A DNA stretch of 64,000 bases. Origin: Octopus vulgaris. Taxonomy: Eukaryota. The notes under the pieces were generated by a model. The model did no database searches and was not told the DNA's origin. It was given only the letters and a program-made list of their open reading frames with translations. The translations under genes were made by a program, and so were the position numbers. The stretch covers positions 105,214,001 to 105,278,000 of the forward strand of contig OX597817.1 in NCBI GenBank assembly GCA_951406725.2, written 5' to 3'. This document shows positions 5,394 through 64,000 of the stretch, one piece after another; position 1 is the first letter of the stretch, and the number at the start of each line of letters is the position of its first letter.

Positions 5394-6260
5394 TTATTGC
5401 AAGTCAGCAACTCTCTCTCTCTCTTTTACTCTTTTACTTGTTTCAGTCATTTGACTGCGGCCATGCTGGAGCACCGCCTTTTTGTCAATCTTCCTTATTT
5501 CGCTCATATTCCAGTTCAACACATTGAAACTGTAAATAACAACAGGAACTGCTAATGAATTTATAGCTAACACCTTGTTACGTGCATTTAACTCAGATTT
5601 TAGGACTGCCCGAACTCTCCTGTAAGACTCCTTCTCTTTCATACTTGCATGTTGAATGCCAGAGCCCTCATTTATTCCGAGGTATTTGTAAGTTTGTTCC
5701 TGCTCGAGCTCTTTTATGACTGTGTCAACATCCAACACCACTGAATGTGAGATATTCAGTTTCCCTTTCTGGAAAGTAGCCTTGGCACATTTATCAAGAT
5801 CAAATTCCATCCCAATGTCATCACTGAATGCTTTCACAGTACGTAGTAGTTCTTCAAGCTCATCATCGTCTTTGCCATAAAGTTTTAAGTCAACCATATC
5901 AAATAGATGACTTATTTTCTTCTCGCCAATTTTATATCTATACCCTCTTCTGTTGAGTTCACTTGTAAGGGGTATTAGGGCTATGCAGAAAATTAGAGGT
6001 GAAAGTGAGTGACCTTGGAAAATGTCGCAGTTGATATTAATATTTTTTGTGGTCAGTACTCCATCAGAGACGTATAACTGGAGATTTGTATTCCACATTG
6101 ACATGTTGTGTTTCAGGAAGTTTGAAATCACAGGAGAAATTTTGAAGATATCCAGCGATTTCAAGATCCATGAATGCTGTGTGCTGTCGAAGGCAATTTT
6201 ATAATCAATCCATGCAGAACTAAGATTTCTGCGTTTGTTATGACAGTTCTCAAGGATCAT
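5394..6260 (-). pseudogene. Reverse transcriptase core fragment of the R4/Dong LINE
   Basis: RT motifs in the 288-aa ORF; catalytic YxDD mutated to DMVD; interrupted near 5411-5478 by a SINE 3' fragment. Confidence 0.9.
5411..5478 (-). mobile_element. SINE 3' fragment inserted into the LINE
   Basis: cttttacttgtttcagtcatttgactgcggccatgctggagcaccgcc is the reverse complement of the SINE end at ~23729-23780; LINE coding resumes on each side (KIDKK | LLTCNKMSHPK). Confidence 0.85.
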
Positions 6261-6901
6261 GCGATTGATTAGGAGTTAGTCTTTGCATCCATATAAGCCT
6301 CGTCGGCACCCTTTTTGTTTAGTAGGGAAAATATCGTTCTATTCCATAAATGTGTATATTTTCTCCACGAGAAAGTTTATACGTGGTTGATAGACATGTT
6401 ATGGGCCGGTAGTTTTGGGGAAATTTGGTTTCATTACTCTTCGGGAGTAGGTAAGTAATACCTCTTGCTAACCAGTCGGGTGTTTTTGCACGGCCTCTCA
6501 TAATTTCATTGATTAACTGGACTAACTTTTCGTGTGCGCACGGGAGCGAGGCGAGCCAAAAATTCGGTACCCTATCATTAGCAGATTTCCAATTATGAGC
6601 CTTTGTAAGTGTCATCCTTAGGTCTGCTATTGTGATATCTTCTCTTGCTTGCACTGGTAAGTTTTGGTAGGATCCAGCCTGCATTTTCCTTATAAGTCTT
6701 TTCATTACTCTAGATATTTTCCCAGAAGTTTTCAACTTCTTCCATGGCTTCTTCAACAGTTATTTTCTTCTTCCCTATTTCTCTGTAGATCGTTTTCGCA
6801 TTGGATTTGAACAACTTATTTTGTCTGTAAAATTTGTTTCTCTTATCAAATCTTCGTATTCTTTGAGATTTGGCTTGGACTAATTATCATCATCATCATC
6901 A

Positions 6902-10336: not shown

Positions 10337-11581
10337 TGAGAGGTGTTCATTAAAGAATTCCTATGACCCACTTCCCTTGGACTGGAATAAACTTGGCATG
10401 ATTATTAGCCCTTCTCTGCATAACCACCACCAATGGCGACACACTTCTTCCATCGCTTGATGCAGCTGTGAAGACCTCGTTTGTAGAAGTCAGTAGGTTG
10501 CGCCTGGTGCCAAGACTTCAACTCGAAAATAAGTTCATCATCATCCAAAAAGTGCTTCCTTTTCAAAAGATACTTCATGGTTTGGAAAGAGGTCAGATGG
10601 TGCGAGATCGGGAGTGTAAGGGGGATGAGGAAGGATTTCATAACCGCAGGAGTGTGATTTCTTCTGGGCAACGTGCGCATTGTGAACTGGAATGTTGTCT
10701 TGGAGGAGGCAGACTCCTTTGGTCAGCATACCCGACTTTCTGCTTTGATGGCGTCCCGCAATTTCTGTCGAAGAGAAGCATAATATTGTGGTACCCTTTG
10801 CCAGAAAATCCACCATCACTAACCCGCGCTGGTCCCAAAAACCTGTGAGCATCACCTTGCCTGCTGAGGGTTGGACACGAACCTTCATTGGAGGTGATGA
10901 GTTATCATGCTTCCATTGCTTCAATTGGACTTTAGTCTCATGATCATAATGACGGACCCATGCTTCATCCTGTGTGATAAATCTACCGAAAAAGCTCTCC
11001 TCGTTTATTGGCACATTGCCAAAAGAGGCTGGGAGCAATTGACTCGTTCCTGCTTCTGAAAAGGTGTGAGCATACGGGGAATATATCGTGCAGATAACAT
11101 CCGCATGTGCACATGGTTGTAAATTATTTTTTTCACGGATCCTACACTTATCTTCACTTCTTGGGCTAGGTGCTGAATGCGGTGATCCTCCAAAATGGCG
11201 GCTTCCACTTTATGAATGGCGTCGTCATCAATGTCGGAATGTGGTTGTCCACCGATGTCCAACCGCATTTGAACTTACGATGCCAGTGCTTGACTATGTC
11301 GTATGACGGTGCATCGTCACTATAAACTTCTTTCATCTCATCGGAAGTCTCTTTGGTGTACAACTTTTCAAGTATAAGAACCTGATCACTGATCTGCATT
11401 CAACTGGCTCCATTATAACATCTTAGTCCATTTCAGCAATCGTAAAAGACAAATGAATACTAGTGGAAAGCTGCGATTTACAATGTGACATGTAGAGACA
11501 TGTATCATTATATTTGTACAAGTTCCATTTCCTGCACTAACCGGAAGTGGGTCAGAGGTAATCTTTAATGAACACCTCTCG
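10337..11581 (-). mobile_element. Full-length decayed mariner transposon
   Basis: ~38-bp TIRs (gagaggtgttcattaaaga...tgacccacttcc) with TA at both ends; transposase motifs TQDEAWV, LLQDN, HPPYTPDLAPSD and YIPRML (WVPHEL-like); frameshifted. Confidence 0.93.
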
Positions 11582-23393: not shown

Positions 23394-23788
23394 AGGCGCA
23401 GGAGTGGTTGTGTGGTAAGTAGCTTGCTTACCAACCACATGGTTCCGGGTTCAGTCCCACTGCGTGGCATCTTGGGCAAGTGTCCTGCTATAGCCCCGGG
23501 CCGACCAATGCTTTGTGTGTGGATTTGGTAGACGGAAACTGAAAGAAGCCTGTCGTATATATGTATATATATATATATGTATGTGTGTGTATATGCTTGT
23601 GTGTCTGTGTTTGTCCCCCTAGCATTGCTTGACAACCGATGCTAGTGTGTTTATGTCCCCGTCACTTAGCGATAGAATAAGTACTGGGCATACAAAGAAT
23701 AAGTCCCGGGGTCGATCTGCTCGACTAAAGGCGGTGCTCCAGCATGGCCGCAGTCAAATGACTGAAACAAGTAAAAGAGAGAAAAGAG

Positions 23789-37500: not shown

Positions 37501-37705
37501 GACCCATAACTGTATCCTGTAAGGAAACCAACCAAGCAGAACGACAAGCTTGACCACGGAAGAAAAATGTCATCAATTTTTTGACGAATCAAAATCAGAT
37601 CTGACTCATAACTCTATCCTGTAAGGAAACCAACCAAGCAGAATGACAAGCTTGATCACGGAAGAAAAACGTCATCAATTTTTTAACGAATCAAAATCAG
37701 ATCTG
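37501..37705. repeat. Tandem duplication, 102-bp period
   Basis: gac.cataact.tatcctgtaaggaaaccaaccaagcagaa...caaaatcagatctg occurs twice, starting at 37501 and 37603. Confidence 0.92.
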
Positions 37706-38646: not shown

Positions 38647-39845
38647 ACATGAGTTAAAATAATAAAATAAGAACAGTAATAAACGAGTGAAGAAAAAATA
38701 AATAGTGCGTGTGTTTATTTGGCAAAAACAAAATAACCATCCTGATACACACACACACACACTTACAGAGGCATACTTATGTTTTATAAAATATTCTCTA
38801 TATCACCATATATTTTTTATTTGTTTTTTTCCACTTCGGTATTGTGTGGTAGCCCCGCACCCCAATCTTTATACTATTAAATATGTTCGCGATGACCGAC
38901 GTAAAACTGAATACATTGACTGAAATTGAAGTTTATTTTCCAAATTATTAAAAAAAAACAAACTATGTAAAGTCGAAAAAGACGTAACTCGAAATGACGT
39001 AAGTTGAGATACGCCCGTGTGTATGTGTGTGTGCACGCGCGCGCGTACACATACACATATACACAAGCATACAAGTGTGCGTACTCTTCCTTCGAGAGCA
39101 GTTGTCATTGTTGACGTTGATGAATGATGCATGATGATGATCTAAAGAAATATGAAACTAAGAAAATATAAGACAATACAATGAAACCCGAAAAGATTTA
39201 TTGAACACCAACACCACCACCACTACTACCTCCAACCCTATTTCCACCCCACACCAACACCGTTATTTTCAAGTTGAACGTTAATTAAAATAGATTATTA
39301 TCGTGAGGCATATGCCGAACTTATGGAGCTAGTACGAATCTAATGTTACAACTGCTTCTAATCATTTGAACTATAATATATATAATTATTATATATATAT
39401 ATAAAGAGAAGCAAGCGTGCTGATATCTAGTTATGAATTTATCTGAATTAAGTATCCAGCTGAAACGAACACGACTCTGTAACATCAACAAAAAGAAATG
39501 TAGGGTAGTAGCAGCGGGCTTAGACGTGACCTATTTACTTACCTCAATGATTTATATTGACTGTCATTGCGATAGCCTCTCCTCTCTCTCCCACTCTCTC
39601 TTTCTGTCTCTCTCTCTCTCTCTTTCTGGAAACTGTATCCTGGTAAGGGTACATGGCAGATCAAAGTATTTTTTCAAGGTCAAGGTCAAACGTGAACGTG
39701 GCAAACACGTACACAATTATACGCACGCGTGCGCTCGCATACACACATACACACAAACACACACTCACACACACATATACACTCATATTTGCATACGTGT
39801 GCAAGTATACATATATGTATATGTATGTATATATATATATATATA

Positions 39846-40470
39846 CAGCAGTTGGGCAAAATGGAAACGCCTTAAAATTTTAAGCAAATCTATTTTAATA
39901 TGAGGTAGGACCACTTTGGCAGTAATTACAGCTTGAGTTGTACGAGGCATGGACTCGTACAAAGTTTGAATTGTTTCTAAAGGAATTTTTGTCCATTTTT
40001 CAGCTAAAACAGTCTCCAGTTCTTGTAGTGATGATGGTGGAGGATATCGACTCCTTACTTGTTTTTCTAAAATGCACCATAAATGTTCAATAATATTGAA
40101 ATCTGGGGACTGTGATGGCCTGATAAGATGTTCAACTTCACTAGAATGTTCCTCGTGTCGTTCAGTAACAACTTTAGCTGTGTGAATTGGTGCATTATCA
40201 TCCTGAAAGATTGCGTTTCCCTCCGGAAACAGTTCCGCGACCATATGATGAATTTGATCAGATAAAATGCTTAAATAGTCTTGACTATTAATTCTGCCAT
40301 GAAGGGAAACCATTGGGTCGGCAGATTTCCAAGATATAGCCCCCCACCCACCAGATCATCACAGATCCTCCTCCACGTTTAACAGTTGGAAGAAGGCAGT
40401 CTGGGTCAAATGGTTCTTTTGGCTGTCTCTACACCTACACTCGGCCGGTGGTCGGAAATAAGGTAAATAA
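39846..40470 (-). mobile_element. Tc1-family transposon 3' half
   Basis: TA|cagcagttgggcaaaa end; PTVKRGGGSVMIW, IFQDDNAPIH and SQSPDFNIIEHLW motifs. Confidence 0.9.
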
Positions 40471-56951: not shown

Positions 56952-58479
56952 CATATATATATATGTATGTGTGTGTGTGTGTATGTGTGTGTGTGTGTTA
57001 GGGTGTACAACCTGTTTCATTCACTTTCCGTCTACCAAATCCACTCACAAAGTTTTGGTCAGCCCGGGAATATAAGTAGAAAATATTTGCCCAAGGTTCC
57101 ATGTAGTGGGACTGAACCCGAAGCCAGGGGGTTGGGAAGCAAACTTCTACCACACAGCCATACCTGCGCTTATATTGCATAAAACGTATCTGTTTTTCAA
57201 GTATGTATTATACCATTGAATAAAAGTCATGTATTTATCAGGTAATAAGTGACTCTAAATATTATTTGTTTGATTTATTATTTGTGATATTGAAATGAAA
57301 TCCCACAATTTTTCCCTGTGACTTTTTGCTTGACCACATGTGATTTTTCTTTGCCGACATGTGATTTTTTCCCCATTTACCATCCCACCATCCATCAAAT
57401 ACCCACTGCCATAATACTTCATTATGAATCATAAAAAGTTATTTCCTATTATGATCCTTAATAATATCATGGCGTGGGCCTTAGTATTAATGGGTGGGTG
57501 AGCTGCACTCATCTAACACACCAAGAATATACGCTCATGATATTTCTATATGTATAGGTATAAGATTTATGAAGCAACTTTCACTCATCTATTAACAATG
57601 GTTCCTTTTTTCTTTCCCAGTAATATTTTCTCTCTCAAATACGTTTAATGTACAATAATATAATAAAATTACAACAACCAATAACTATAAAAAAATAAAA
57701 TTACTTGTAAATAAAATGGCATTCTTTGTAATACTTCTGTTTTGTCTGTAGTCATGTGATGTGCCGTCTGCTTATTTTCGTTTAGTCACATGGTATGTGT
57801 GACTCAAAAGAAAGTCACAATGAGTCGTATCTACTTCTCGGTAGTAACTGTTAGCTGTCTTTTCTTTCTATGTGTCACAGCCTCTTACTGCTTTGTTTCA
57901 TTATTCTCTCGTCCCCTCCGCAAGCTTCATTTGTTACTCTAATATCCTCTCTCTTTGGATACGTTATTCACTACTTCCTCCAGTTGCGCTTCTCAGTTCC
58001 TCTTTTTTTTCTGCTTTTTTTATCTTTTCCAGTGTCTGAACTGTTAAATACATCTCCCCACACTTTCGGTTTCTTGAATAGCGAGCAAAATATTCAATAC
58101 ATAGCGTAAAGTATGTTATAGTTTATTAGAAGCTGTAGACTTTTGAACCCTAACGCTAGGTTTCATGTCACCGATGACTGAAATTCAATAGATAATCTGT
58201 AAAGCGAAGTTAGTAATGATTCAGAACCAGTGCGTGTGTGTGCACGTGTGTGCGCGCGAGCATGTATGTGCGTGCATGCGCGTACATGCGCGTGTGTGTG
58301 AGTGCTTGCATATGTGTGTATGCGTTTACACAACATATACGCATGCATACGTGTACACACACACATCTATATATATATATATACAGTCATATATGTCTGT
58401 CTTTCCATGACACACATTTATGTATCGATATATACGTGAGTGTGCGTGCATTTATAAATATAATATGTATATATTCGAT

Positions 58480-58742
<263 letters not shown>

Positions 58743-58967
58743 TTTTTCGTTTTCTTTTTACTTGTTTCAGTCATTAGACTGGGCCCATGTTGCAGCACTG
58801 CCTCGCAGAATCTTTAGTCGAATGAAATGACCCCAGTACTTATTTTTTATTTTAAGCATGTCACTTATTCTATCGGTTTCGTTTGCCGAACCGCTAGATT
58901 TGGACGTAAACACACCAATACCAGTTTTCGTGCGCTGGTAGGGGAAATACACACGCACACACACGCA

Positions 58968-59006
<39 letters not shown>

Positions 59007-59239
59007 TAGGCGGTCTTCTTTTAGTTTCTATTTACCAAATCCACTCACAAGGACCTGGTTGGTCTGAAGCTATGAGACTGAACCCGGAACCATGTGGCAT
59101 GGAATCAAACTTCTTACCACACATCCACGCCAACTATCTATTTAACAGAACCATTACGTTCTTTAAGTTTTGCCATAAATTGAGATCCAGCCAACACAGA
59201 GCCTATTTCCCAGTGACTTCCATGCTCTTTGACCCATCG

Positions 59240-59663: not shown

Positions 59664-61123
59664 GTTCCATGAAGCGTGAATGTGAAGGATAAATAGCTTC
59701 CGTGTTGTAGAATTACACGTTTTGACAAATTTTTCAGAAATGCCTTGTTTCCGTAAGCTTTGCTCTTCTTAAGTTTGAGACACACGTTTTCACTTTGGCC
59801 GACGCTGTACTATACGTATGTCTAATAAAGAAATAATACTATACGTATGTCTATACTATTAACCTTTCCTATGCTGTTACTTCCTCTCCTATCCCATTAC
59901 ATCATATCCTATCCAGTAGTACCTCAGCATCATGTCTAAATATTACACACTCTTGCATTCAGCTATCGCCTGCATGATGGTAATCTCACCAAGCCATTTC
60001 TCTTTGTTCATCATTTCTCATACCGCATGAGATGATGTCAGAGCTTATTAAAAAAATATTCTATTTTAAGCAATTTTGCTGTGAAAACTTCTTATCAACG
60101 CGAAAACTAGCGTTAAGTAGCGAAGTGCGTTAAATATCTTCTCTGGGCTATCTGTAGAAAGAATTGTGTCCTGTACATTTAACTACATGTGAAGCAAATA
60201 CTTGAATTTTTCATTTGAAATTTCTTTTGTTTTTGTTACAAGCTGAAAGCGATTTTTAATATGTGTTGGTTGACAATATTATGATATTAATTACTTCATA
60301 GCAAATAATGTTTCATGGTTGTTGCGAAGATTGGGCTGGAGTACATACGGTATTGTAATAGCCATCAGTTATACTATTATAGTAAAAAAGAATGAAGTAA
60401 ACGGATTTCCGTTTGTTTCTACAATGAGTATTCGTTCGATCAACTGAAGTATCTTTGGCTGAATATTCCATAGAAACTGGTATCTTTCAACGTAATTTTC
60501 AGGCGGAATCAGTATGACACTGTGATAATGACTGGACTTTAAAATTACAGATAAAATCAATCTGACAAGTTTCCACGCAGATTTCGTCTACCATATTTTA
60601 CTTACTGGGCTTCAGTCGACGCGGACCGATGGTAAAAAGTACTAGATGTCACGCAGAGGAAACGAACGGAGGGAATAAATGGACACAAATAACACTATTT
60701 TGATTAAAATCCATAACCCTCGTGCCTTCCGCTAACACTTCCTCTATCACCAGCGCAACGAGAAGTGGTAACATGGACCTTCGGCCTGTTAGAAATAGCA
60801 CCAAAACCGTCTTCAATAAATAATGAAAGGACACTTGGATAACGTTGTCATACATATACCGGAAAAGATAAGGTGGTCACGGTTGGAATACCTGTTAGAT
60901 TATTATTCTTTTATTCTTTTATTCGTTTCAGTCACATGACTGCGACCATGCTGGAGCACTGCCTTTAGTCGAGCAGATCGACCCCACGACATATTCTTTG
61001 TAAGCCTAGTAATTATTCTACCGGTCTCTTTTGCCGAACCGCTAAGTTACGGGGACGTAAACCCACGAACATCGATTCTTAAGCGATGCTTGTGGGTGGG
61101 GGGGAACACAGACACACATACAT

Positions 61124-61177
<54 letters not shown>

Positions 61178-61414
61178 AATGTGAGGTTAAAATTCTTTTT
61201 CTCGAAAAAAAATTTATCAATGGCCAGCATATTAAAAAATATCTTTAACCGGTTAAATTTATAAGCAATTCATAAATGAGGGCAAAGGAAAAAATTCTAA
61301 TGCCAAATATGCCGAAAAATTGGACATATTGTCCATTAACCATATAATTTTTTCACAATACGCACGTTACTCGAAAAAAGGTCGACAGAAATTTCTAAAA
61401 TATTCCATTATTAC

Positions 61415-61473
61415 CATATCGGACCGATTTCAGAGTTAGCTACTAAGAGCCCTCTCTTCGTCAGTGATACATG
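61415..61473 (-). ncRNA. Minimal type I hammerhead ribozyme (left arm)
   Basis: Reverse complement of the fold at 61892-61950. Confidence 0.65.
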
Positions 61474-61891
61474 TGGTAAAAGAAATAAATGAGGTACTTA
61501 CTCATACCCATGGAAGAAGCAAATACTAAGTCATGGGCACAACTAAGTACCCCAAATACATCCAAAATAGAAATACTCCAGCCCATTCGAGGCATGTGCG
61601 ATTTGAACTGAGGCTCTCATAGAGTGAGTTAGTTAGTTCGGAAGTGAACGCTTAAATTTATATCAAATTTATATCAAAATTTTTTTCGAAAAAAATTTTA
61701 TCCTCACATTTAAGCGTTCACTTCCGAACTAACTAACTCACTCTGTGAGAGCCTCAGTTCAAATCGCACGTGCCTCGAATGGGCTGGAGTATTTCTATTT
61801 TGGATGTATTTGGGGTACTTAGTTGTGCCCATGACGTAGTATTTGCTTCTTCCATGGGTATGAGTAAGTATCTCATTTATTTCTTTTGCCA

Positions 61892-61950
61892 CATGTATCA
61901 CTGACGAAGAGAGGGCTTTTAGTAGCTAACTCTGAAATCGGTCCGATATG
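61892..61950 (+). ncRNA. Minimal type I hammerhead ribozyme (right arm)
   Basis: gtatca-CTGACGA-agag.ag.ggct(tttagt)agct.aa.ctct-GAAA-tcg-GTC-cgatat: intact core, 4+4-bp stem II, short near-palindromic stem III (ATCGGT), stem I with an A.C mismatch next to the core. Confidence 0.68.
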
Positions 61951-62802
61951 GTAATAATGGAATATTTTAGAAATTTCTGTCGACCTTTTTTCGAGTAGCG
62001 TGCGTATTGTGAAAAAATTATATGGTTAATGGACAATATGTCCAATTTTTCGGCATATTTGGCATTAGAATTTTTTTCCTTTGCCCTCATTTATGAATTG
62101 TATATATATATATATATGACGGGCTTCTTTCAGTTTCCATGTACCAAATCCACTCATAAGGCTTCGGTCGGCTCAAGGTGCCACGCAGTGGGACTGAACT
62201 CGGAACCATGTGGTTGGTAAGCAAGCTTCTTACCGTACGGCTACACTTGGGCCTCTTATTTTAGATTTTTATTATGCATTTCTTGAATGTAAACCAATCC
62301 CTGTATTTGAACGGTATTTTATTTATTTTGTTTTGCCTTTCATCTTCCTGAATGAAAGACCAAATTTAGCGTCGGAAGGGTTGAGAACGTAAGAAGCGTA
62401 ACTAAATTCTGCACGCAGTAAATCGCAGTATTTGTCCCGACTCTTCTACTTTCTGAGTTCAAATATCACCTACGTTAACTTTACCTTTATCCTTTCGGGA
62501 TCGATAAAAATAAAAAAAAAGCACCGGTGGATAGGAGGAGCTATTAGAACGTCGGATTGGATGCTTTGCAATAGTTGTTCAAGGAAGTTTGAGTTCTGAG
62601 CATGACCTACATGGTTAGTAGACGTAAACCATCTCCTTATTTAACAGTACCATTAAGCACTTTGGGTGCCTTAAGTGGGGTTCAATTTGTTGCAAGCATT
62701 CAGACAAAGATTCGTTCCGCCTCTGTTCCAGTCCCGAAGCCCTGACGTGAACCGAAGGCAAATGATTTCCCTCTGTTGATCGGTAATGTATATATATATA
62801 TA

Positions 62803-64000
62803 TCCACTTTTGTAACCAGGATCATCCTTCCATGTTGAAGGGTCTTTGTCGAAGAAATCGATGCTGATAGAAAATCTTGTGAAGAAAGTTTTTGTACCAG
62901 GAGTTAAAAAAGACGAAAACTCGATGTTTGTACAGGAAGAAAAGTCATTTTGGTGCAGAATGTACCTCTTCAGTTGACTTTTTTCTTCTCCCTATTCTTC
63001 ACCTTTGCTTGCTTCCAGCATAACTTGAACAATATTTGGTTTCCCCTCTGTTGGAATATTGTCATCAAATATGGATCGAGCCACATTTTCGGGAGCTAAC
63101 TACCAGAGATGGCTGGGAAATGTTTTCGCAGCAGCCTTACTGATTATCGGATCAATACCCTGATAATTTATCAGTTGACGCATGAAAAGGAAATCATGAT
63201 AAGGTGCTTTAATTGCTTCTGATGACAGAAACCAGACTCGAACATACGCTCGAGCAAGAAAAATACATATTCTTCTTAAAGAGTTCTTCTTTAGAACATA
63301 ACTGAAATTGATCTTGAAACAGATATATCTTGAATGCGTAAATTGCTTTTGACATCCACCTCATGCTGACTTACAGTTCCTGATGTACGAATCGATATCC
63401 CGTTCTTCGGAATGCCGCCAAGAAAGATCATCGTTAACTCCAACAATTCTTGGTAATCATATCCCTGTTACTTCTGCGTAGAAAGGTGTTATTCAAGAAA
63501 TCCAAGAATGGTAGAGAAGGCATCATCAGGCACTTCATTGCTTCCAGTTATATAAACCTTCTTGTTGAGTTTCGTTCAGGTTTCTCTAAATCTTTTAAAA
63601 AACGCCATGCCAGGACCAGAAGTTGCACCCATCAGTGAGTCAAAACAGCTCCTAAAAACTAATTCAAAAATGTGATGACGGCAAGGGAAGTACAACAGGT
63701 CGCGATTGAACAATTTTTCTAGATTTGTACTGGTACCATTCACTCGACCTGTGTTGCTTGCTGTCGTATCACAGCAAAGTGCCTGAATTTTGTCGGTTAT
63801 ACCTCACTCACTTCTCCGCTGCTTGGTAAACAGCCATGGCTTGCTGTTCTCCTGATGATGTTGGAATTTCAGAGGCTCCCAACAATTGCTCCTTATCTTG
63901 AAAAGTTACTATTATTGCCAGTCTATCAATCTTTTCAACGCCTGTGAGTGCTGGGACCAGCTTTCTATCCCAGTGCAACACTAATTCTTGACAATCGTTC
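62803..64000 (-). mobile_element. Decayed hAT-related (hATm-like) DDE transposase, running off the window edge
   Basis: Minus-strand translation: LHWDRKLVPALTG..DRLAI..EQLLG, CCDTTASNTG, LLYFPCRHHIFEL (CxxH), RWMSKAIYAFKIYLF, SHLW*L; stops and frameshifts; absent from the ORF track; subfamily name recalled, not searched. Confidence 0.78.

Follow-up and report, generated by a model that had tools for sequence, protein, structure and literature searches.

The locus under study in the 64-kb window (the whole stretch of DNA that was analysed) is a mirror-image double copy of a high-copy repeat of ~490 nt without a detectable gene. It lies within the (TA)n microsatellite of an older repeat. Its features are listed below with their strand and the evidence for each, which includes contigs from four public sequencing runs (X1, X3, X6 and X9).

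60907 to 61117, minus strand: host SINE-like repeat left of the insert, its strand inferred from a putative tRNA-like head on the right side (paralogues 23599-23787 and 58741-58918)
61118 to 61175, no strand: left part of the target microsatellite, TA-rich and ending in pure (TA)n (tandem-repeat detection)
61171 to 61668, minus strand: left arm, one full unit plus ~10 nt, with the hammerhead sense pointing outward (family contigs match the window as far as 61668 and continue into the start of the unit)
61177 to 61215, plus strand: terminally repeated segment, first copy, the unit start on the plus strand (84.6% alike to 61711-61676)
61177 to 61265, minus strand: 3' extension of 89 nt, left arm only (arm comparison; (AT)n loose ends in the family)
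61416 to 61470, minus strand: predicted type I hammerhead, left (motif, fold and helix II variation in the family)
61658 to 61707, no strand: pivot between the arms, with a duplicated 11-mer, the palindrome and the start of the inverted copy (tandem repeat 61654-61678 with a period of 11; arm comparison)
61676 to 61699, no strand: perfect palindrome of 24 nt where the arms invert, which likely primed the snap-back (palindrome search and shuffles)
61676 to 61711, minus strand: terminally repeated segment, second copy, joined to the unit's end (same order in contigs of X1, X3, X6 and X9)
61708 to 62100, plus strand: right arm, an inverted copy with outward hammerhead sense and a shorter 3' end (arm comparison)
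61895 to 61949, plus strand: predicted type I hammerhead, right, with its core from 61901 and its predicted cut at 61943/61944 (motif and descriptor)
62101 to 62117, no strand: right part of the target microsatellite, a 17-nt TA tract (tandem-repeat detection)
62118 to 62234, minus strand: host SINE-like repeat on the right side of the insert, a part that contains the putative tRNA-like head (paralogues 23414-23554, 57016-57148 and 59011-59118)

Self-comparison within the window aligned 61266-61657 (392 nt) with 61708-62100 (393 nt) in inverted orientation. The arms differ by seven substitutions, six of which are transitions, and by one 1-nt indel, and are ~98% alike; the near-identical inverted arms of ~392 bp between (TA)n tracts that the first-pass annotation had described are therefore present. 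Read on the minus strand, the right arm runs through the unit's end straight into its start, also as claimed. The left arm extends 89 nt beyond the outer end of the right arm. Measured in window coordinates, the unit repeats every 488 nt, and its G+C content is 34% across 61177-61668; no further copies of it were found within the 64-kb window. On a scale on which a divergence of 0.09 corresponds to 25 million years (PMC13282606), the arm divergence of 2.0% would give an insertion age of ~3 million years for an octopus host, provided no conversion occurred, so that the youth proposed for the insertion is relative.

A single host repeat supplies both flanks of the fold-back, its two halves standing in the correct order. 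In the empty paralogues 23414-23787 and 58741-59118, the microsatellite alone separates the halves (~44 nt in 23414-23787), and the TA tracts are therefore the target and not part of the element. A microsatellite (TA)n target, which is a trait of Penelope-type insertions, was thus found at the locus, and (AT)n loose ends occur in family contigs as well. The host repeat is putatively a tRNA-derived octopus SINE; ARAGORN found no tRNA.

Part of the stretch was contained in 20 of the 24 listed public sequencing runs (10 studies, five organism labels); none of the runs containing it is recorded as RNA, which says nothing on expression. Four runs, all of them consisting of contigs, were aligned to 61171-61720 at 80% likeness. 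X1 and X3 are probably DNA; X6 carries no label and was counted as DNA because of its size, and for X9 the assignment to RNA is a guess. The fitting contigs numbered 4779, 2410, 2439, and 153 in X1, X3, X6, and X9, respectively, showing that the family is a high-copy repeat; the summed contig depth does not amount to a copy number.

Each arm carries a predicted hammerhead with an intact core (CUGACGA, GAAA, and GUC), which begins at 61464 on the minus strand in the left arm and at 61901 on the plus strand in the right arm; a motif scan bore out the intact cores reported earlier. In the left hammerhead, the core lies at 61464-61458, helix II (4+4 bp) at 61457-61432, the GAAA box at 61431-61428, and the helix III hexamer at 61428-61423, and the predicted cut falls between 61422 and 61421. 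The loose core pattern is weak evidence by itself, since a shuffled window would yield 0.19 matches by chance and both matches here come from a single sequence. A descriptor of helices I, II, and III in full, which was composed after the motif had been seen and tolerates its one mismatch, matched these two sites only and none of 300 window shuffles or 20,000 unit shuffles. Rfam gave no hammerhead match at the gathering score or at E values up to 10; the matches found at E values up to 10 were of hairpin type (e.g., microRNA precursors) and were judged to reflect the fold-back and the TA tracts. A metagenome scan with a 21-letter pattern gave one match (L001), which shared 23 nt, lacked the rest of the motif, and was attributed to chance.

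The helices differ in quality. Helix II has pair probabilities of 0.84 to 1.0. For helix I, 5 bp are possible beyond the first position, which is an A-C mismatch in both arms; its pair probability is ~0.34, and the lowest-energy monomer fold pairs the core elsewhere. The helix III hexamer is self-complementary when G-U pairs are included, a trait suited to action as a dimer. The Penelope-type minimal hammerhead consensus has G10.1-C11.1 and an extra base between positions 9 and 10.1 (PMC4209133), whereas the motif at the locus has A10.1-U11.1 and no extra base after A9, in addition to the A-C mismatch at the base of helix I. These non-canonical helix I and II bases suggest that cleavage may be weak.

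Variation in the family falls into pairs in helix II. The pair 61455/61434 shifts from A-U towards G-C at matched shares (0.34/0.36, 0.59/0.68, 0.57/0.59, and 0.59/0.41), and the pair 61449/61440 shifts from C-G towards U-G or U-A with nested shares. The chance that four of the 16 paired helix II positions make two full pairs is 0.015. This covariation was read from column shares, which are unphased, with 40 of the 62 variant rows listed; among those 40, the remaining helix II variants sit in the loop and no core substitution occurs. A 1-nt insertion behind 61423 is found in ~3 to 10% of the depth. Loose ends behind 61419 (X3 and X6) and before 61383 (X3 and X9) mark diverged subfamilies, one of which seemingly lacks the usual cleavage triplet after the GAAA box, so that the ribozyme may be missing or altered in part of the family.

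The core starts of the two hammerheads are 437 nt apart on opposite strands, and this locus is therefore unable to yield a cleaving dimer. In either read-through transcript, the antisense copy would be made first and so would pair with the only sense hammerhead. The prediction for the fold-back locus is that no cleavage occurs, as pairing with the antisense copy would block the hammerhead. In direct tandems elsewhere in the family, it would work as a dimer. The locus is most likely a dead copy. The first-pass annotation had also foreseen a long hairpin open to ADAR or small-RNA processing, and its folding part held on either strand (approximately −700 kcal/mol and 418 to 426 pairs, as computed). 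As to editing, A>G and T>C sites in X9 (5 and 12) were not in excess of those in the DNA runs (3 to 4 and 9 to 10), a comparison of contigs, which cannot reveal editing and so does not speak against it; the differences between the arms are not A-to-G on the hammerhead strand.

The arms meet in a pivot that holds a duplicated 11-mer and the 24-nt palindrome, a length that was reached in one of 2000 shuffles. The palindrome lies within the second copy of the unit's start. The two copies of this repeated start are 84.6% alike over 39 columns, compared with 98% between the arms, and differ by at least three to four events where 0.8 are expected (P from 0.047 to 0.009, values that are understated because the region is rich in homopolymers, which mutate fast). 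As a hairpin, the centre is imperfect: on the left there is a 7-nt replacement, and the right lacks the 11-mer that is present in family contigs. Some family copies seemingly carry a palindrome of a T-run, CG, and an A-run twice in succession near the unit start, as judged from piece lengths (X9 record 32 and loose ends before 61197), and the left arm's end holds one degenerate copy of it.

Among the contigs of the four public runs, none of the listed pieces spans the centre of this locus, and the window's own letter at 61672 is scarce in depth (16 of 122 in X1, 0 of 199 in X3, and 0 of 46 in X6). Both points would fit an inversion that arose as an assembly or amplification chimera. We nevertheless regard this as very improbable, because the arms differ at eight places and six of their seven substitutions are transitions, each arm shows derived letters not found in the other, the outer ends differ, and the flanks are the two host-repeat halves in the right order.

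Both arms carry letters that are held by 1 to 16% of the family depth at 61401, 61524, and 61536. These three shared rare alleles point to one template molecule or one rare subfamily, and since they are rare in the family and common to both arms, the arms are likely to come from one template. At the positions where the arms differ, the family matches the right arm at five of the seven substitutions, with no change listed at the other two; relative to the family, the left arm has five derived letters and the right arm two. Shared rare alleles and a pivot palindrome are accounted for equally well if a single insertion was later duplicated in inverted orientation at the DNA level (by fork reversal or break repair at a palindrome), or if two copies were homogenised by gene conversion, and the small changes at the centre are of a microhomology type. 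However, the inverted arm has no host flank and ends on (TA)n near the apparent ends of other copies (the X1 loose ends before 61284), and three joints in three runs reach 61675-61681 from other points of the unit, although their orientation is ambiguous. A DNA-level origin of the second arm is thus decidedly unlikely.

The ends of the unit were examined in the family contigs, which track the window to 61668; those that continue go into the unit's own start. An end-to-start joint (61663 to 61171) was found in X1, variant letters at 61672 in X1, X3, and X6, and a loose end after 61668 in X6. One X9 contig with an inferred cover of 61544-61668 plus 61680-61707 reproduces three depth bins exactly (13.7, 34.7, and 8.89). 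The end-to-start junction proposed earlier is therefore found in other copies, in three probable DNA runs and one possible RNA run, and the unit period in these copies is ~490 to 500 nt. The junctions are what is seen of direct tandems: the pieces are too short to hold two hammerheads, and no direct tandem lies at this locus. Depth over the junctions is small (~46 to 200, compared with 10^4 to 10^5 in the unit body).

In X3, 24 records have loose ends in (AT)n before 61198, and in X1, 28 records have them before 61284, which hints that the family shares the two 3' ends used by the arms. Copies in other runs meet (AT)n at the same place, and the expectation that copies would begin at variable permutation points was not upheld; the point looks fixed and lies ~245 nt from the predicted cleavage site. 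Towards the other end, depth drops from 61551-69 to 61646-64 by ~15-fold in X1, 24-fold in X3, and 22-fold in X6, which hints at 5' truncation in the family. In other copies, joints at 61587-61677, 61594-61675, and 61623-61681 (one contig each) jump from inner points to the palindrome, and joints at 61459-61204 and 61574-61207 (one contig each) lead back to near the 3' end. Such joints from inner points are what partial tandems or further fold-backs would give. Opposite-strand joints at 61201/61361, 61243/61422, and 61513/61628 (one contig each) and several skips were also seen and are not relied on.

Long inverted arms, a short spacer, and a TA context are also what a fold-back DNA transposon (MITE) with long terminal inverted repeats would show after insertion at TA. 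For this locus, such an origin is barely credible: the true ends are not inverted repeats, as the left arm is 89 nt longer; few if any family contigs show the centre found here, in contrast to the abundant body; the junctions are head-to-tail; and the variation in helix II is as expected of a hammerhead.

Comparison of the six frames of the insert with Pfam gave two sub-threshold matches that do not support a gene. Word searches with two frames retained 0 of 4 and 0 of 138 candidates, and a phmmer search with one frame against 1.84 billion proteins gave no match; the other three frames were compared with Pfam only, and such blanks are weak evidence. To that extent, the unit lacks coding sequence, as had been supposed. 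No reading frame for a reverse transcriptase and GIY-YIG nuclease was found in the insert, and a likeness of plus-strand 61177-61250 to a nuclease C-terminus, seen by eye, found no support. Elsewhere in the window, decayed elements lie on the minus strand at 5394-6275, 10541-11209, and 39783-40355, with domains of a reverse transcriptase (RVT_1, E value 2e-13) and two DDE transposase fragments (9e-11 and 3e-11), and a two-copy tandem repeat of 102 nt (94% alike) lies at 37501-37705. The list of open reading frames shows no evident host gene near the fold-back. The minus strand of 62800-64000 holds a broken, multi-frame coding sequence that presumably resembles a DNA transposase; it gave no Pfam match.

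The arms could be the 5'-truncated end (pseudo-LTR) of an autonomous Penelope-like element, with the end-to-start joins as its partial tandems. Such elements typically show truncated copies in inverted orientation, hammerheads, and (TA)n targets, the depth falls steeply to the 5' end, and continuation past 61668 is listed for a minority of contigs (547 loose ends are unlisted). The contigs that do pass 61668, however, go into the unit's own start and not into new sequence, and the protein searches described above gave no coding remnant, for what such blanks are worth; we consider this origin quite unlikely.

Very likely, the locus is a non-coding repeat with a hammerhead that was inserted in inverted form in the manner of Penelope elements. 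The Penelope or retrozyme type of origin proposed at first has a documented counterpart, in that Penelope elements of Adineta show head-to-head inversions with junction palindromes, which Arkhipova and colleagues read as self-priming on an antisense template (PMC3846280). Other Penelope-like elements show an inverted 5'-truncated copy, a tail, and a (TA)n bias (PMC8557442), dual minimal hammerheads occur 100 to 700 bp apart on opposite strands (PMC4209133), and the Anolis element PAc initiates internally, cleavage not being needed (PMC11167929). An autonomous partner or a similarity to a named Penelope-like element was not found, and two short hammerhead motifs were absent from the available part of the PMC8557442 supplement. 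In that part, the hammerhead of Hydra-1_Obim differs from that of the unit, and Naiad ends were compared by eye only. The unit's last six letters before (AT)n (61171-61182, hammerhead strand) are those of Naiad_Ovul in the same supplement, a likeness seen by eye and too short for significance.

As to the template, the predicted cut site lies in the middle of the unit, ~245 nt from either end, and the template was therefore not a cut linear monomer. We infer that copying began at a fixed internal start, on either a head-to-tail transcript left uncleaved or a circle closed by ligation. In the classical cycle of non-LTR retrozymes, dimeric hammerhead cleavage and ligation would provide a circular monomer, which the same enzymes would have read slightly more than once before the snap-back. 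The inserted unit extends across the predicted cut site, which a circle would permit, and the end-to-start junction occurs in the possible RNA run X9; circles are produced by animal retrozymes (PMC7229834) and have been proposed for Penelope-like elements (PMC4209133). Nevertheless, reading one circle twice predicts identical repeated starts, in conflict with the divergence given above, the junction is found in the DNA runs too, and the RNA nature of X9 is a guess. In addition, the non-canonical helix bases suggest weak cleavage, and eight of nine predicted Xenopus dimers failed to cleave (10.64898/2026.07.22.740005). A circular template is thus unlikely. Because the repeated-start copies differ more than the arms do, an uncleaved tandem RNA is mildly favoured over a circle; of the template first suggested, a circular or head-to-tail RNA, the head-to-tail form agrees with the end-to-start junctions elsewhere, and the circular form fits less well.

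The account that we prefer has, in full, about an even chance of being right: an inverted double copy of a gene-less unit of ~490 nt with a predicted hammerhead would have entered the (TA)n of an older repeat in one event, with a Penelope-like reverse transcriptase and GIY-YIG nuclease supplied in trans. The nuclease would nick (TA)n, and reverse transcription would begin inside an uncleaved head-to-tail transcript, at a fixed position ~245 nt downstream of where the hammerhead would cut, and pass through one unit into the next. At the 24-nt palindrome just beyond the unit junction, the new strand would snap back and prime itself, producing the head-to-head arm. The second copy would end 89 nt early and rejoin (TA)n. 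Two small changes beside the pivot, through later or concurrent microhomology repair, would leave the centre imperfect.

The unit works like a Penelope-mobilised retrozyme and, being gene-less, is not established as a strict member of either family. Retrozymes have been regarded as non-autonomous Penelope derivatives (10.64898/2026.07.22.740005, Li, Clavereau and Pollet 2026). Animal non-LTR retrozymes (Cervera and de la Pena 2020, PMC7229834; 10.64898/2026.07.22.740005) share with it a short, gene-less unit of low G+C content, a type I hammerhead with a weak self-complementary helix III, head-to-tail junctions, and the proposed use of Penelope-like enzymes in trans. The unit, at ~490 to 500 nt, is longer than the 170 to 400 nt given in PMC7229834 and falls within the 51 to 972 nt given in 10.64898/2026.07.22.740005. 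Unlike those retrozymes, the locus is inverted and not tandem, has an apparent fixed 3' end and 5' truncation, and is known here from DNA letters and a predicted ribozyme.

With endonuclease-bearing Penelope-like elements that have inverted pseudo-LTRs (Adineta vaga Penelope, PMC3846280; Hydra, Neptune, and Naiad, PMC8557442; Anolis PAc, PMC11167929), the locus shares the head-to-head inversion, the junction palindrome, the extension of one arm, the (TA)n target, the sense hammerhead near the 3' end, and insertion ends that lie away from the cut site. It differs from them in having no reverse transcriptase or nuclease frame, and no sequence link to a named family was found in the accessible parts of these sources. 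Its one-sided extension is 89 nt, compared with a Penelope tail of 30 to 40 nt. Metazoan Penelope-like minimal hammerheads (PMC4209133) likewise have a long helix II, a 5-bp helix I, and a palindromic helix III, and opposite-strand hammerhead pairs in Schistosoma, 100 to 700 bp apart, correspond to the distance between core starts found here. Non-autonomous Chlamys elements such as MRC1 (PMC8557442) are also non-coding and of Penelope type, with pseudo-LTRs and head-to-tail copies, but they mostly lack canonical hammerheads and their 3' end resembles that of autonomous partners. Each feature of the fold-back is thus already in print, and its layout is known for Penelope-like elements. A description of this family was found neither in the literature search nor among the octopus elements in the available part of the PMC8557442 supplement, a search to which Repbase, Dfam, and the supplements of PMC7229834 and of the 2026 preprint did not belong.

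A family that is short, abundant, and gene-less, and that combines a fixed start with a unit junction followed closely by a palindrome, is a compact test case for how Penelope-like elements make head-to-head inversions and for whether the template of animal retrozymes is a circle or an uncleaved tandem transcript; pivot counts and the repeated-start comparison over many loci could separate these models. A wider picture, which we hold to be doubtful, would be that of a high-copy family in several related (probably cephalopod) species, in which dimeric hammerheads yield circles, Penelope-like enzymes copy from a fixed start, and a built-in palindrome folds the enzyme back past one unit, with the resulting hairpins feeding ADAR editing and small-RNA pathways. 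In octopus, such hairpins would bear on the unusually high potential for double-stranded RNA and on hyper-editing (PMC5625713).
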